Source: a virus (lineage: Duplodnaviria > Caudoviricetes). From it: a stretch of 64,000 nucleotides of DNA. The position numbers and the translations under genes were made by a program. Shown in pieces: positions 58,893 through 64,000 of the stretch. The stretch is taken from positions 32,001-96,000 of the IMG/VR virus record IMGVR_UViG_3300021255_000040. One strand, written 5' to 3'. Under the pieces are notes generated by a model, which had not been told where the DNA came from, did no database searches, and saw only the letters and a program-made list of their open reading frames with translations. Positions within the stretch are counted from its first letter, which is position 1. Each line of letters starts with the position of its first letter.

Positions 58893-58900
58893 TACCTTTG
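58893..58900 (+). promoter_or_regulatory. Bacteroidota -7 element of the giant gene
   Basis: TACCTTTG(C). Confidence 0.7.
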
Positions 58901-58928: not shown

Positions 58929-61900
58929 ATGGTATGTGTAGATAAAAAAAGCCCTGAGTTCCTGAGGTTAGCCAGACGCATGAATCTGGATGCTAACATA
59001 CTGGAGCAAATCATACATAAATACTACAGAGAGTCTGGTCAGGAGGAGCTTTTCCCCACTGATGTGTATGTCAATGCTCAGTTAGGGAGAACTCAGTACG
59101 AGGAGGCTATGCCCACTGTCAGACAGTTTTGGGAAAATGCTTACAGTCAGCCTAAGACTTTCAGTTCTGAAGGTGAATACAAACGAGCTTGGGTTCAGGC
59201 TATCAATTATTTTCCTAAGGAAGCTATTGTCAATTACAAAGATACTAATGGCAACTTTATTCTGGCAGTAAGGAGACCTGTGGAAAAGCTTGAGAAAAAC
59301 TCCAAGGGAATGATGATTGTGACTGATGCAGAAGGTAACAGACTGCCTATGCTGTCACATCAAGAAGCCAGGGATTATGCATTAATTACCAGTCAATTGT
59401 TGCCTGATTCAGAAAAAAGTAGTACTTTTGCAGCTGATATGCGAAGTGTAACTGAAAACCAGGACTACATCTCAGATTCTCTGGATGCAGCAATGAAGAC
59501 TGGTAGGTGGAATGACCAAGCTATAAAGGATTTAGAGAAACTAATTAAAAAGATACAAGATGGAGAAGTTGATTTTAAGCGAACAGTGGGAGAAAGATTC
59601 TCCTTCACGAAAGGCATCTCTGAAGCACATGCAGCAGCATCCCTTATCACAAGAGGATCTTATGGAGCAAGTCAAGCAAAATCAGGAGCTGCGAAAGAAA
59701 TATATGACAGAGATGCAGCCCAAGGCAGGCAGCAAGAAAGGCTGATAGAAGCATGGGCAAAGGCAGCTGACCTTTGGGTTAATGACTATACAGATGCACA
59801 AGGCCATAAAGCTAATAGTCTTGAGGGCTTAATGCACAGTCAATGGCAGTATATGGATCAGGCATCTGAAGCTGAAGTATTCAGATATGATGATACTCAA
59901 GTCATTAAGTCAATTAGTCTGTCACACTCCAATGACAATGTGGCTAAGCTACTTGACAGAATAGCTCTTTTCAATCAACTATTCCCTGAGACAGCTCTTA
60001 CCATTCAAGGATTTGGCAGAGACAAGCTGGGACACTTCAGGGTTATTGCCACTCAGAATCTTATTAATGGTAAGGAGCTGACTGATGAACAGCTCAAGAA
60101 GTTCCATGATAAGTATAAGCTTAAGGAGCAGGGTGCTTGGTTTGTCACTCCTGATGGTACAGCTCTTATCAATGACTTGACCAATGCCAATGTCATGATT
60201 GATGAGCAGGGTAACTATTATGTCATTGATGCTGATGTAGTCTTCAACACTCCTGAAATGGGTGGTAAGGTTCTTTTTGATAATTCCTTTGAGTTTCATC
60301 AGAAAGAAAGACCTGCCAGAAAGGAACGTCAGGTGATTGGCCCACAGCCATTTACATTTAATGATGGTACTGTAGTTACTGTTCCCTTCAAGCCCAATGA
60401 GCAACAGGCAGAGGCTCTAAATGCCATGAATGACTTCCTCAACTCTGATGAGACTACCATGACTCTATCAGGTTATGCTGGTACTGGTAAGACCTCGCTC
60501 ATGGAGATTATTGCTCAGAAGGCAAAGAGACAGCATAAACCCATCATGTTCAGTGCTACCACCAACAAGGCTGCTGCTGTCTTGAAAGCAAGAGTCTCTA
60601 AGGCAGGTTTTGATGCTCAGACACTGAACAAGGTATTTGGTATTAATGTAGAAGTTGATTCTTCCAAGGCTTATAATGCAAGGAACCTGGTTACTGCTTT
60701 GAGAGATGCTGACATCATGCCTGGCACTACAGTAGTCATTGATGAAGCCTCTATGATTAATGAGGAGAACTATAGAATCCTCAACAGAATAGCCCGTGAG
60801 AATGGTCTGAAGATTATCTATGTTGGTGATAAGGCACAGCTTGCTCCAGTCAATGAGACTCAGGTCTCTAAGGTATTTAGAAACTCTGAAGGCAGGGTTG
60901 TAGAGCTTACTCAGGTAGAGCGTACTGATGACAATGCTATCCTTAAGGAAGCTACTAACATCCGCAATGGCCTGCCTCTGTCTGGTGAATCTAGTTTCAA
61001 TGAAAGAGGTGAAGGTGTAGGGTATCTTACTCCTAAAAGCCGTGATGAGATTGGTAAAGTTATCAGGCACTACATCCAAGGACTCAAGGATAATCCTAAC
61101 TTCTTCAGGATTCTGGCTTATACTAATAAAAAGGTAACAGAGTACAATGACTTTGTGAGAACTCTCCTTGGTTACACAGACCCTATTCCTCATGTTGGTG
61201 AACCTCTGACAGGTTACAATAACTGGGGTTATGACTGGAGAACTAAGAGTTATAGATTCATTAACTCTGAGAGCTATAAAGTTACAAGAGTTGGCAAACC
61301 TGCACAGTCTAAAATTTCTGTGAATGGTCAGGAGTTTACTATGACCTATGTTCCTGTTACTATGGAGAACTCTCTTGGTGAGAGTGACACCTTTAATTAT
61401 ATGGATATTAAGGGTAATCAGGAGAATAGACAAGCAGCTCTTCAACTGGCTACTCAGAAGAAAACTCTGTGGGAGCAATATAGACGTGCTGTTGGTAGAG
61501 AGGCTAAAAGTAACATCTTATCCCAGATTAACTCTATTGACCAGTTCCTCTTTGTCAATGACAATATTGAAGACCCAACTACTCATAATCTGCTCCAGCC
61601 TAAGACTGTAGATTTTGGTTATGCCCTAACTATCCATAAGTCCCAGGGGTCTACTTTCACTCATGTTCTCATGGATGATATTGATGTGGCAAAAGCAGGC
61701 AACACATTAAACAATGCTGCCAATGCTATGTCTGTAGTTGACTTGGGTGATGCAGGAATGGTTGCTGATGCTTCTATGGAAATGAGGGGCTCTGAGGATG
61801 TTGACTTAGGTGATTTGTCCTCAGTTCCTGCTGAAGAGCCATCTAGTAGTAATCCTAATATTGCTAATGTTCGTCAGCAGTTGGAATATGTAGGTGTATC

Positions 61901-64000
61901 AAGGGCTACCAATACTGTCACTATTATATCTAATAATGTAAAGACAGAAGGCAGTCCTTTGACTCCTCAGAACTTGATTAGTAAAGAGGACAGTAATCCT
62001 TCTAACAATGAGGTTCAAGGAGAGAATATTGCCTCCAATGGCTCAGAGTTTGCCAAGAAACTTACCAATCCAGGCAATAACTTGCAGGTAGAGTACAAAG
62101 GCAAGACCTTTAGGAATGCAGAACATGCCTATCAGACATGGAAGTCTGGAGAATTTGATGAAGTAGCTTATAATAGTACAGCTTTCAAGTCTAAAGGTAG
62201 TAAACCTGCCAACAAACAGACTAACTATCAGACTATGGTAGATATACTCAAGGCTAAACTCCAGCAACATCCAGAACTGGTTGAAGGAATTACACAGAGA
62301 GGCGGAGAGGAATACCTTAAAGCCTCTACCCATAAGGTTACTGGTGACAAGTATTGGGAATCTACAGGCCAAAATAAGTTCATCGAGGCTCTTACTGAAG
62401 CTTACAATGCAATAAACCAAGGAGATAACCGTTCTAATGAAAAGACCAATCTGATTGCAGCAACTATTGGTCCATATTTCAATACTTCCTATGAGGATTA
62501 TATGGCTATGGTTCCTGAGAAACAAAAGGAGATGAGAGAAGCCTTTGCTAAAGCTGCTCATGAAGTAGCAAAAGCATTGGGCATTCCTCTTGATATGAAG
62601 CAGGCTTCTTTCAATATTGGAGGCTATGAGTTTGAAGATGGAAGTTCTGTTATAGAACCGAGTTTTACTTTTAGATTTGGAAAAGATGCTACTCCCGAAC
62701 AGGTAAGAATGTTTGCAGCTCTCATGGGAGATTTAGGATATGAACAACAAGAAGCTGTAGTTACTAGTTGGGATGTAGCAAATGAAGAAGAAAGGGATGG
62801 TGATAGACACTTTATTGAATTCAAAGAAGAGGAACTGCCACTACTTAAGCAGTTTGGAATTAAAAATTTTACCTTTGATAAAACAAGAGGTGTTTTGTCT
62901 GTCCTAAGTTTTGATACCAAAGATGTAGAGAATTTTTATAAATTAGTAGAAACTATAAAACAAAAAGAGAATGGACTTGAAGAAACTCAAAGAAGAAACC
63001 CCAGAAGAGCGTCGTTTAAGACTTTCTATGATGAGAAAGAAGGAAGAAGAGCTTTGTACGAAGCTTGGAGTGTCAATGCCAAAGACAGAAGTGCCGAAGA
63101 AGGAAGACCCTCTGGAAGTGACAATCTCGTTCAAGAAGCACTAGAAAAGCTTCAAAATAGAGAGTTACCCATTGATAGAGAAACTCCTACTGAACAACCA
63201 CAGAAAGTGTCTCTACCCAGCTATGAATATTTCATGGACAGGTATGAAGATACTACTGTGGATGCTGTTTGGAAGATTCCATTGCTTCAGCAGTTAGATT
63301 CACAACTGACTACTGAACTGACTCCTGAAGAGAATAATGAGATTCTTGACAGAATGACAAGGATTCTTGAGGCAAAGTCTCAGGAGGATTTGTTGGACTT
63401 GCAAACTGAAGAACCTAAAGAAAAGAAAACAGTGGAACAAAACCTCACTGAGTTTGAGAAGATGACCCAACAGATTAATAACCTGTTGGACAGTAACATC
63501 ATCTCTGCTTCTGAGATTAGACATGTGGCTGAACTGGTGGTTAACTCCATCAGTGACACCATTACTATTCTACAGAAGGAAGATGGTGCTGCTGAGAAGT
63601 TCTTCCCTAACATTGAGACCAAGATTGACTTTAAGACAGCTTCTCGTAAGGATATAGTTGAAGCCATTGGTATTAATAACCTCATTCACAGAGCCAAGCA
63701 GCAGTTTGACCCTGAACAGAATGACTATGAGGACTTTGATACCATTGACCAGGCTGACCTTATTATAGACAACTGGGATGCCATTATGACTCTTGCTGCT
63801 GATACCTTTGCTATGACTGAGGGATTTGGTATCATGAGAAATTATGACAATGGTGGCTTCAACACTACTCAGGCTTCTACCATTGACTATGATAACTTCA
63901 ATGATTATAGCAACGACTCAGATGCTATGGCTGAATCAGAGAAGGATGAACAGGAGCATTGGCAGGTAGAGCAGAGAACTATTGATGTGCTGAACTCTAT
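58929..64000 (+). CDS. giant polyvalent protein (partial, about 1690 codons in window): kinase, Dda/RecD-like SF1B helicase, NADAR, possible SAM-lyase-like domain
   Basis: Open frame from MVCVDKKSPEF to the window end. Kinase: EAEV..VIK..LFPET..NDL..ANV..IDAD. Helicase: GYAGTGKT, DEASM, VGD.AQL, TIHKSQGSTF, YVGVSRA. NADAR: FRNAEHAYQ..K, AKLQQHPEL, DKYW. Confidence 0.9.
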   Translation, partial: MVCVDKKSPEFLRLARRMNLDANILEQIIHKYYRESGQEELFPTDVYVNAQLGRTQYEEAMPTVRQFWENAYSQPKTFSSEGEYKRAWVQAINYFPKEAIVNYKDTNGNFILAVRRPVEKLEKNSKGMMIVTDAEGNRLPMLSHQEARDYALITSQLLPDSEKSSTFAADMRSVTENQDYISDSLDAAMKTGRWNDQAIKDLEKLIKKIQDGEVDFKRTVGERFSFTKGISEAHAAASLITRGSYGASQAKSGAAKEIYDRDAAQGRQQERLIEAWAKAADLWVNDYTDAQGHKANSLEGLMHSQWQYMDQASEAEVFRYDDTQVIKSISLSHSNDNVAKLLDRIALFNQLFPETALTIQGFGRDKLGHFRVIATQNLINGKELTDEQLKKFHDKYKLKEQGAWFVTPDGTALINDLTNANVMIDEQGNYYVIDADVVFNTPEMGGKVLFDNSFEFHQKERPARKERQVIGPQPFTFNDGTVVTVPFKPNEQQAEALNAMNDFLNSDETTMTLSGYAGTGKTSLMEIIAQKAKRQHKPIMFSATTNKAAAVLKARVSKAGFDAQTLNKVFGINVEVDSSKAYNARNLVTALRDADIMPGTTVVIDEASMINEENYRILNRIARENGLKIIYVGDKAQLAPVNETQVSKVFRNSEGRVVELTQVERTDDNAILKEATNIRNGLPLSGESSFNERGEGVGYLTPKSRDEIGKVIRHYIQGLKDNPNFFRILAYTNKKVTEYNDFVRTLLGYTDPIPHVGEPLTGYNNWGYDWRTKSYRFINSESYKVTRVGKPAQSKISVNGQEFTMTYVPVTMENSLGESDTFNYMDIKGNQENRQAALQLATQKKTLWEQYRRAVGREAKSNILSQINSIDQFLFVNDNIEDPTTHNLLQPKTVDFGYALTIHKSQGSTFTHVLMDDIDVAKAGNTLNNAANAMSVVDLGDAGMVADASMEMRGSEDVDLGDLSSVPAEEPSSSNPNIANVRQQLEYVGVSRATNTVTIISNNVKTEGSPLTPQNLISKEDSNPSNNEVQGENIASNGSEFAKKLTNPGNNLQVEYKGKTFRNAEHAYQTWKSGEFDEVAYNSTAFKSKGSKPANKQTNYQTMVDILKAKLQQHPELVEGITQRGGEEYLKASTHKVTGDKYWESTGQNKFIEALTEAYNAINQGDNRSNEKTNLIAATIGPYFNTSYEDYMAMVPEKQKEMREAFAKAAHEVAKALGIPLDMKQASFNIGGYEFEDGSSVIEPSFTFRFGKDATPEQVRMFAALMGDLGYEQQEAVVTSWDVANEEERDGDRHFIEFKEEELPLLKQFGIKNFTFDKTRGVLSVLSFDTKDVENFYKLVETIKQKENGLEETQRRNPRRASFKTFYDEKEGRRALYEAWSVNAKDRSAEEGRPSGSDNLVQEALEKLQNRELPIDRETPTEQPQKVSLPSYEYFMDRYEDTTVDAVWKIPLLQQLDSQLTTELTPEENNEILDRMTRILEAKSQEDLLDLQTEEPKEKKTVEQNLTEFEKMTQQINNLLDSNIISASEIRHVAELVVNSISDTITILQKEDGAAEKFFPNIETKIDFKTASRKDIVEAIGINNLIHRAKQQFDPEQNDYEDFDTIDQADLIIDNWDAIMTLAADTFAMTEGFGIMRNYDNGGFNTTQASTIDYDNFNDYSNDSDAMAESEKDEQEHWQVEQRTIDVLNS
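59423..59430 (+). promoter_or_regulatory. internal Bacteroidota promoter inside the giant gene
   Basis: TTG at about 59400, 20-nt spacer, TACTTTTG(CA). Confidence 0.6.
59560..59745 (+). CDS. nested +1-frame 61-aa ORF overlapping the kinase N-terminus
   Basis: A-rich leader, upstream internal promoter, local codon and CG shift in the main frame. Confidence 0.55.
   Translation: MEKLILSEQWEKDSPSRKASLKHMQQHPLSQEDLMEQVKQNQELRKKYMTEMQPKAGSKKG
62971..63144 (+). CDS. nested +1-frame 57-aa ORF (MDLKKLKEETPEERRLRLSMMRKK...)
   Basis: Leader AACTATAAAACAAAAAGAGA-ATG; TACCTTTG at 62870-62877; CG-enriched overlap. Confidence 0.5.
   Translation: MDLKKLKEETPEERRLRLSMMRKKEEELCTKLGVSMPKTEVPKKEDPLEVTISFKKH

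Follow-up and report, generated by a model that had tools for sequence, protein, structure and literature searches.

Within a 64,000-nucleotide stretch of viral DNA (the window), a giant gene that starts at position 58929 and encodes a polyvalent protein carries, close to its 5' end, a Kinase-PolyVal domain. Two short open reading frames (ORFs) that begin with ATG are nested in this gene in the +1 frame, ORF1 (61 amino acids, aa) just upstream of the kinase core and ORF2 (57 aa) directly behind another domain. From the comparative, family and single-genome data presented here, it is suggested with a probability of about 0.8 that the gene of this injected polyvalent protein hides at least one true overlapping gene, namely ORF1, and that ORF1 encodes a partner of the kinase which is read in the +1 frame.

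Retention and frame-specific selection at ORF1

A search with the host protein returned homologues of 99% down to 25% identity, and DNA was obtained for 16 kinase-module loci. The ATG of ORF1 is kept at the aligned codon in 15 of these 16 loci, and the +1-frame ORF that follows it comprises 57-73 codons in 14 of them and 31 codons in one. Retention reaches down to 36% host-frame identity, and ORF1 is kept both when the kinase module is located at aa 150-460 and when it is located in the middle of the protein, at about aa 1800-2560 (L009, L015, L016, L017). In every intact homologue a +1-frame stop codon is found 1-5 codons before the ATG. In the sixteenth locus, L011, which is a contig of 2.3 kb, a frame change at L011:1439-1700 makes the host frame upstream continue into that of the peptide, and this change may be a sequencing indel or a real variant. 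When five collinear lineages were compared, the longest +1-frame stop-free run common to all of them covered aa 210-271 (62 codons), the next longest had 38 codons, and runs in the +2 frame did not exceed 16 codons. Interruption of the +1 frames in homologues, which the original prediction had named as an outcome that would speak against it, is thus not what was found: the ORF1 frame stays open, and so does the ORF2 frame in the few homologues available.

It had also been expected that synonymous variation would be suppressed where the two frames overlap, and at ORF1 this is the case. Among identical residues in 13 lineages, the fraction of identical codons amounts to 0.77-0.80 at aa 210-259 against a background of 0.42-0.52, and the strongest peak of synonymous constraint in the whole gene is located at aa 206-245 (first of 2920 windows, z 4.7; next peak, z 2.6). 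When the proportions of nonsynonymous (pN) and synonymous (pS) differences were determined according to Nei-Gojobori, pN/pS inside ORF1 was 0.92 for the host frame (bootstrap 0.77-1.12) and 0.50 for the +1 frame (0.41-0.60); in the kinase core the corresponding values were 0.35 for the host frame and 1.06 for the +1 frame. An arginine residue of the +1 frame is conserved through the codons CGA, CGG, CGT, CGC, and AGG despite varying host residues, and in pairwise whole-gene scans for a switch of the selected frame against four lineages, the ORF1 region came first in each. These results indicate that ORF1 is a genuine, deeply conserved overlapping gene.

ORF1 had been placed inside or directly after the kinase domain. 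It is actually located upstream of the Pfam core of this domain (aa 268-438), with an overlap limited to the first 5 residues of this core. The stretch of the host protein that underlies ORF1 is poorly ordered in the AlphaFold2 (AF2) model, with a predicted local distance difference test score (pLDDT) of 31-66 compared with 70-91 for the kinase core, which fits a linker tolerant of dual coding.

The single-genome features reported for the two nested ORFs were re-examined as well, and the coordinates and the frame of both could be verified (Table 1). CG dinucleotides occur 3 times in the 186 nucleotides (nt) of ORF1 and 5 times in the 174 nt of ORF2, compared with a gene mean of 0.86 per 180 nt; across the giant gene at least 3 are reached in 6% and at least 5 in 1% of the windows counted. 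Only 6 of the 3728 codons of the gene are of the type NCG, and 4 of these 6 fall in the two overlaps (P 1.5e-5). Codon use is atypical in both places, as had been noticed: the gene as a whole employs GCT (57%), GGT (57%), and ACT (62%) for the respective amino acids, compared with 7/10 GCA, 5/7 GGA, and 0/3 ACT in the ORF1 region and 4/4 GGA in the ORF2 region. In a scan of synonymous codon choice (3671 windows), aa 201-258 ranked first (z -6.3), and the two next-best non-overlapping windows flanked or overlapped ORF2.

The A-rich leaders were confirmed too. Among 205 ATG codons in the +1 frame of the giant gene, those of ORF1 and ORF2 are the only ones whose 30-nt leader reaches 57% A while G+C stays within 20%, and, judged by the minimum free energy (MFE) of the region from -40 to +23, they are the two least structured of all (mean of the 205 starts, -11.2 kcal/mol; standard deviation, 3.3). 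Leaders of long ORFs in this genome have on average 44% A. The leader of ORF1 is A-rich, mostly with 47-63% A, across nearly all homologues. ORF length as such is not remarkable. The giant gene contains 13 +1-frame ATG-started ORFs of at least 40 codons, among them 4 of at least 57 codons, of which 2 are longer than the ORF1/ORF2 pair, and synonymous-codon shuffles yielded 2.9 +/- 1.4 +1-frame ORFs of at least 57 aa (P 0.31 for the 4 observed). The local open length was equally unremarkable in such shuffles, both for ORF1 (P 0.20) and for ORF2 (P 0.50).

Of the TAnnTTTG elements that had been proposed to act as internal promoters, the presence was confirmed, at 59423 and at 62870, and the promoter role was not: the motif occurs at chance frequency (65 copies in the window, 66.7 expected) and is absent from the 200 nt upstream of ORF1 in 8 homologues, that is in half of them. 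The statement that the helicase domain lacks a comparable arrangement needs a similar qualification. A longer +1-frame ORF of 87 aa is present there (61348-61611), but it has no such start-site features and is not conserved, as it is not open in homologues, where the shared run has 22 codons.

An ab initio scan for an unstructured start combined with a hydrophilic ORF in an alternative frame recovered ORF1 in 10 of 10 homologous giant genes and ORF2 in its carriers. The same scan found two further hydrophilic +1-frame ORFs in other polyvalent proteins, one of 67 codons at host aa 2185 of L004 and one of 60 codons at host aa 1056 of L008. Both have A-rich and very unstructured starts (MFE 0.0 and -0.9, respectively). 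Neither candidate is related to the ORF1 family or has a Pfam domain next to it; they are a hint that nested ORFs might be more general.

A small-protein family that accompanies Kinase-PolyVal

A profile built from 12 nested peptides was compared with 1.84 billion representative proteins and matched 46 of them at E <= 1e-3, nearly all with lengths of 46-95 aa. The family consensus reads M...YLNE.HRK.SEA.QKEV..M..HPLS.EE...Q..RN. Aligning the nested peptides with 21 family members by hhalign gave a probability of 98.5% (E 3e-15, 51 columns), and the family profile matched the ORF1 product of the window itself at E 1.7e-11. No model for the M..HPLS.EE family was found in Pfam, PHROG, or NCBIfam. 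Some of the short matches may be nested ORFs that were called on fragments, as is seen at L019. In other proteins the family domain is found in frame after a HAD_SAK_2 domain (E 2.8e-25), before a UPF0150/HicB-like domain, before a ribbon-helix-helix (RHH)-like tail which was recognised by eye, and also as tandem copies. Among the representatives no in-frame copy was found in long proteins, all family matches having at most 243 aa, and it follows that in giant proteins the domain would always be kept as a separate reading frame.

AF2 predicts three helices for the ORF1 product (pLDDT 76). With this peptide as query, Foldseek returned nothing, VIA-align returned generic helices alone (Z at most 4.6), no usable match was obtained in the ESM Atlas, and none was detected by tblastn against GenBank phages. 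Scans of IMG/VR with the fused family members P0063 and P0067 were empty, and a scan of the genome collection with a narrow family alignment returned one locus. The profile matches show that the ORF1 product is a member of a real, unnamed family of small helical proteins with the motif M..HPLS.EE..Q..RN.

When the family profile was used to search 301 Bacteroidales genomes, matches were obtained in 7 of them, and 6 of the 7 credible matches adjoin a Kinase-PolyVal domain. At three loci (L022, L026, L021) stand-alone kinase genes contain the family domain as a nested +1-frame ORF shortly before the kinase core, and at L024 it is nested in another giant ORF. At L028 a stand-alone kinase of 239 aa carries it as an in-frame C-terminal extension. 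At L025 it is encoded freely and followed by a kinase remnant, and at L023 it is free, with no kinase nearby; a further match, L027, is probably false. In the reverse direction, a search with PF18762 identified 17 kinase loci in 16 of 401 genomes, and 11 of the 17 carry the small domain. Judged by hidden Markov models (HMMs), these include six loci with a +1-nested small domain, one C-terminal fusion, one adjacent copy, and one remnant. In G001 the kinase gene spans both ends of one contig and the nested copy is located at the opposite end, which was counted as the seventh nested case. This contig (C60, with L019, L021, and L039) has a length of 170 kb and a G+C content of 62% at the locus, comes from an uncultured member of the Bacteroidales, and is probably a circular element.

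Tight two-gene linkage of the small domain and the kinase therefore recurs in unrelated genomic contexts, in nested, fused, adjacent, and orphaned arrangements, which points to the ORF1 family as a dedicated genetic partner of Kinase-PolyVal. The original prediction, according to which an effector travels as a cassette with a genetically inseparable inhibitor, is borne out in its structural half and for ORF1 only, as the second-frame gene follows the kinase module across different protein positions and into stand-alone bacterial kinases.

Some points weigh against this reading of ORF1. Firstly, 7 of the 17 bacterial kinase loci have no HMM match for the small domain; all seven possess an ATG-started +1-frame ORF of 49-73 codons in the same place, with a conserved sequence common to two of them. 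Secondly, translation of ORF1 is inferred. Parts of the interval 58931-60061 recur, at 95-99% identity, in metatranscriptome contigs of four studies; as transcript starts, strand, and translation are not deducible from these RNA-library contigs and DNA carry-over is possible, they show the presence of the region alone. As a separate observation, L038 and L044 have in common a conserved +1-frame ORF of 73-74 codons (MEVTIEEIL...ADYL.THSFKS.EEC...) upstream of the kinase core, which the family HMM does not recognise and which may belong to the family as a divergent member.

ORF2, the host gene, and its setting

ORF2 follows a domain of 168 aa, and its peptide is unrelated to the ORF1 family. The label of an S-adenosylmethionine (SAM) lyase, which this domain had been given, found no support in sequence: no match was found in Pfam, searched with the protein and with four members at E <= 5, or among PDB profiles, and the ESM Atlas contained no usable match. 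The domain and ORF2 together are present in L002, L003, L006, and L007 (29% identity) and, according to local alignment, absent from L004, L005, and L008. The cassette is found in L006, yet it is missing from the otherwise near-identical L005, and L002, although 99% identical to the window in the kinase region, carries an allele with 63% identity. This pattern suggests recombinational exchange, and the 168-aa domain with ORF2 thus appears to be a mobile cassette. An alignment-based scan of IMG/VR with the cassette returned none, and its profile gave no match among those of the 401 Bacteroidales genomes that were searched.

In all carriers an ATG is present at the aligned codon, followed by a +1-frame ORF of 51-64 codons, and 4 of the 5 ORFs end with ...SFKKH. 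The ATG is kept in the five carriers despite changes of the host residues (N/Y then G/E), and the A-rich, unstructured start is also present in L006 and L007. When the gene of the window (Q) was compared with L006, the pS of the host frame at ORF2 went from 0.69 to 0.26 and its pN from 0.17 to 0.29, and the +1 frame showed a pS of 0.49 and a pN of 0.24, so that pN/pS at ORF2 was 0.49 for the +1 frame and 1.1 for the host frame; pairs that include L002 were near neutral in both frames. In a whole-gene scan of the same pair, ORF2 was the second-best frame-switch window of 3030, at exactly aa 1348-1404, and the third-best was far weaker. In addition, Arg-Arg of the +1 frame is specified by two neighbouring rare codons, GCG and TCG, and in L006, where they are replaced by ACG and CCG, the host residues differ and Arg-Arg is kept. 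The frame-specific signals make it rather probable that ORF2 is a second nested gene, unrelated to ORF1.

Several findings weigh against such an interpretation. Only four other carriers of ORF2 are available, the ORF2 peptide of L002 is just 25% identical, and the differences between Q and L006 are distributed evenly over the codon positions (18/16/14, counted manually from the alignment). No family and no free-standing homologue of ORF2 turned up in the family searches. The A-rich leader, the low structure, and the open +1 frame are in part correlated outcomes of a linker rich in Lys and Glu. A serious possibility, which we hold at somewhat less than even odds, is therefore that ORF1 is the sole nested gene and that ORF2 is a by-product of a linker rich in Lys, Glu, and Arg, in a segment that two lineages came to share more recently by recombination. 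The unexceptional open length in the shuffles, the evident cassette exchange in this region, and the weaknesses just listed are all in line with a by-product. Less easily explained in this way are the coincidence of the second-best frame-switch window with the exact limits of ORF2, the retention of the ATG in 5 of 5 carriers while host residues change, the preservation of Arg-Arg by different NCG codons in L006, and the start of ORF2 being the least structured of 205.

The virus record from which the window was taken has a length of 123,180 bp with direct terminal repeats and is rated complete; the window corresponds to its bases 32001-96000. Near-identical DNA is contained in bovine gut samples, and the source is a crAss-like phage of the cattle gut. 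The giant gene extends past the end of the window to about 70115 and encodes 3728 aa. The N-terminal third of its product is that of a typical polyvalent protein, with Kinase-PolyVal, a Dda/PIF1-like helicase, a weak match to NADAR at host residues 1041-1144, and the unknown domain that precedes ORF2. The Kinase-PolyVal match reaches 77.9 bits, compared with a Pfam gathering cut-off of 27, and with the model of the kinase domain Foldseek returned protein kinases, including the minimal kinase NleH2. Residues 2832-3544 match PDB entry 6VR4, the RNA polymerase gp66 of phi14:2, at E 4.1e-13 and align to chain residues 1324-2030, and a gene neighbouring a homologue of the giant gene carries a crAss cargo domain. 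From the polymerase match and the cargo neighbour, the product of the giant gene is predicted to be an ejected, virion-delivered polyvalent protein in which effector modules are fused to a crAss-type virion RNA polymerase.

No match for the giant gene, near or distant, was found by DNA search among GenBank phages. Single-protein queries of IMG/VR with the kinase and ORF2 regions gave nothing, and an alignment-based scan with the kinase returned one locus. Some side observations concern the host gene itself. The motif TACCTTTG also occurs at 58893-58900, 29 nt ahead of the ATG of the giant gene. The helicase module contains an antisense ORF of 336 aa at 60468-61478 (minus strand), and antisense frame-0 ORFs of such size are common in the giant gene. 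A second peak of synonymous constraint is found at about 63855-63974 (host aa 1643-1682; z 2.6), together with a +1-frame stretch of 27 codons that is free of stops in homologues.

Table 1. Features of the giant gene discussed in the text, in window coordinates.
Feature	Position	Strand	Basis or remark
Giant gene, 5' part	58929..64000	+	ORF and translation; Pfam and PHROG matches
TACTTTTG, putative promoter of ORF1, not supported as functional	59423..59430	+	137 nt upstream of ATG
Putative ORF1 initiation region, A-rich, unstructured	59530..59559	+	57% A, 20% G+C, MFE -2.8 kcal/mol
ORF1, predicted nested +1-frame gene, 61 aa	59560..59745, overlaps host residues 211-272	+	Conserved ATG, +1-frame selection, family homology
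Kinase-PolyVal domain (PF18762)	59730..60242, host residues 268-438	+	Pfam E 1.1e-21
Dda/PIF1-like helicase module	60378..61697, host residues 484-923	+	Pfam/PHROG matches
Unknown 168-aa domain preceding ORF2	62466..62969, host residues 1180-1347	+	No Pfam, PDB, or Atlas match
TACCTTTG, putative promoter of ORF2, not supported as functional	62870..62877	+	101 nt upstream of ATG
ORF2 start region, A-rich, unstructured	62941..62970	+	63% A, 20% G+C, MFE -2.6 kcal/mol
ORF2, candidate nested +1-frame gene, 57 aa	62971..63144, overlaps host residues 1348-1405	+	Retention, frame-switch window

Possible roles of the ORF1 product and relation to known systems

In Bacteroidota, translation is initiated largely without Shine-Dalgarno pairing, and A-rich, unstructured start regions are favoured. 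The following model is consistent with the data on ORF1. Ribosomes would most likely start internally on the giant mRNA at the A-rich, unstructured start region of ORF1, and no internal promoter would be needed. The ORF1 product probably binds the kinase domain and regulates it in trans; it would restrain the kinase in the producing cell and would not accompany the giant protein into the virion and the next cell. That the small protein acts in this way, as an antidote or inhibitor of the kinase, is proposed tentatively and at less than even odds. Circumstantial evidence in favour of an inhibitor comes from the fusions of the family to antitoxin-type domains, from the orphan copies near decayed kinases, and from the lack of an in-frame copy in giant proteins.

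The main alternative, which we consider the less likely of the two roles, is that the nested protein is a positive subunit, i.e., a small helical cofactor that would complete, or direct to its targets, a kinase without helical C-terminal lobe and that would always be at hand, being made from the same mRNA. Kinase-PolyVal proteins are described as a family lacking the whole C-terminal subdomain (PMC5512222), the domain encoded by ORF1 is all-helical in the AF2 model, and at L028 it is fused in frame exactly at the C-terminus of the kinase. This fusion has to be counted against the inhibitor, as on circumstantial grounds a cofactor explains it no less well. Almost any domain may become fused in a polyvalent protein, yet no giant protein among the 1.84 billion representatives contains the domain in frame, and as a cofactor could be fused and a factor that has to stay behind could not, this absence counts against the cofactor. 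Its fusion to HicB-like and RHH-like domains of the antitoxin type and the intact orphan copies at L025, near a decayed kinase, and at L023, on its own, are not readily explained by a cofactor either.

It is much less probable that the constraint at ORF1 results from a nucleic-acid element or from recoding, i.e., from a structured RNA, a promoter inside the gene, or programmed frameshifting into a truncated fusion. Suppressed synonymous variation is by itself silent on the nature of the overlapping feature, in L011 the upstream host frame runs straight into the peptide frame, and in stand-alone genes the frame of the kinase is -1 relative to the small ORF. Yet the +1 frame is under selection of the protein type, with high pS and low pN, and its peptide has homology to a domain that ordinary proteins contain in frame. 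Instead of a structured start region an unstructured one is found, TAnnTTTG is neither more frequent than expected by chance nor conserved, and the short L011 contig may carry an indel error. The stop codon in the +1 frame shortly before the ATG leaves almost no room for a shift. A programmed ribosomal frameshift is not supported: this stop is present in all intact homologues, and the ORF is in the +1 and not in the -1 frame. Finally, the idea that chance alone produced the two as shadow ORFs of a purine-rich gene, to which the match of their number and length with the shuffle expectation and the longer +1-frame ORFs elsewhere in the gene would be congenial, has next to no credibility given the joint single-genome signatures of the two, and for ORF1 its refutation follows from the retained frame, from selection specific to that frame, and from the homology to a family.

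Nested and genetically coupled small genes are known from several systems. In Bacillus subtilis, comS is located out of frame inside srfAB, a giant multidomain gene, and encodes a regulatory peptide of about 46 aa that is translated independently and acts by protein binding. The likeness of comS to ORF1 lies in being a small out-of-frame ORF in a giant multidomain gene; in contrast, comS is not known to have a functional tie to the domain that it overlaps or to occur in more than one lineage, whereas ORF1 belongs to a widespread family that tracks one enzyme domain. Among phages, Rz1 of lambda is wholly nested in the +1 frame of Rz, overlaps are also known from phiX174, and the products cooperate. 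Rz1 and Rz form a lysis pair of similar size, whereas ORF1 is located in an 11-kb host gene, at the domain boundary of a predicted virion-delivered effector. Toxin-antitoxin systems such as that of the kinase HipA with HipB, and fused forms such as CapRel, link a small protein genetically to a potentially toxic protein-modifying enzyme. ORF1 resembles the type II systems by the coupling of a small protein to a potentially toxic kinase, by the HicB-like and RHH-like fusions of its family, and by the orphans next to decayed kinases, a likeness at the level of sequence and gene order. It differs from them in that the overlap spans nearly the whole small gene and not a few bases, and in that Kinase-PolyVal is not known to be related to HipA.

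Polyvalent proteins and the Kinase-PolyVal domain were defined by Iyer et al. 2017 (PMC5512222), who also mention stand-alone versions in Bacteroidetes. The giant gene described here is a textbook case of a polyvalent protein gene with PF18762, and stand-alone kinases from Bacteroidetes were recovered in this work too. The paper describes neither an overlapping gene nor a partner gene for Kinase-PolyVal, and the words 'overlapping' and 'frameshift' are absent from it. Within the literature searched, the domain is otherwise named solely in a survey of the Legionella kinome. In engineered gene entanglement, the subject of two reports (PMC8528312, PMC12455656), overlap of two reading frames makes one gene hard to lose without harming the other; those are synthetic designs, and ORF1 would be a natural and ancient instance. 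Nested genes are thus already known, and what is new is that phages and bacteria alike preserve a widespread small-protein family in a second reading frame at the edge of one particular enzyme domain. Among overlapping genes, ORF1 stands out by its ancient retention, by a nested frame that is selected more strongly than the host frame, and by relatives that occur as ordinary domains.

More speculative, and in our opinion doubtful, is a general design in which each dangerous module of a polyvalent protein carries an unpackaged, separately translated guardian that is encoded out of frame at the domain boundary, ORF1 being the founding case and ORF2 and the candidates of L004 and L008 being further, unrelated guardians. 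If true, the guardian could not be lost by recombination without breaking the module, and the effector would be kept inactive in the cell that makes it and become active once injected.

Nested ORFs on the same strand are never called by gene finders, and a whole small-protein family, tied to a kinase of phages and conjugative elements, has in this way stayed invisible. Polyvalent proteins and giant phage genes are worth scanning for the combination of an unstructured A-rich start, atypical codons, and frame-specific selection. A single substitution, silent in the host frame, suffices to abolish the nested start of ORF1, which makes the antidote hypothesis directly testable and offers a handle on how phages manage self-harmful effector domains that are made in one cell and act in the next.

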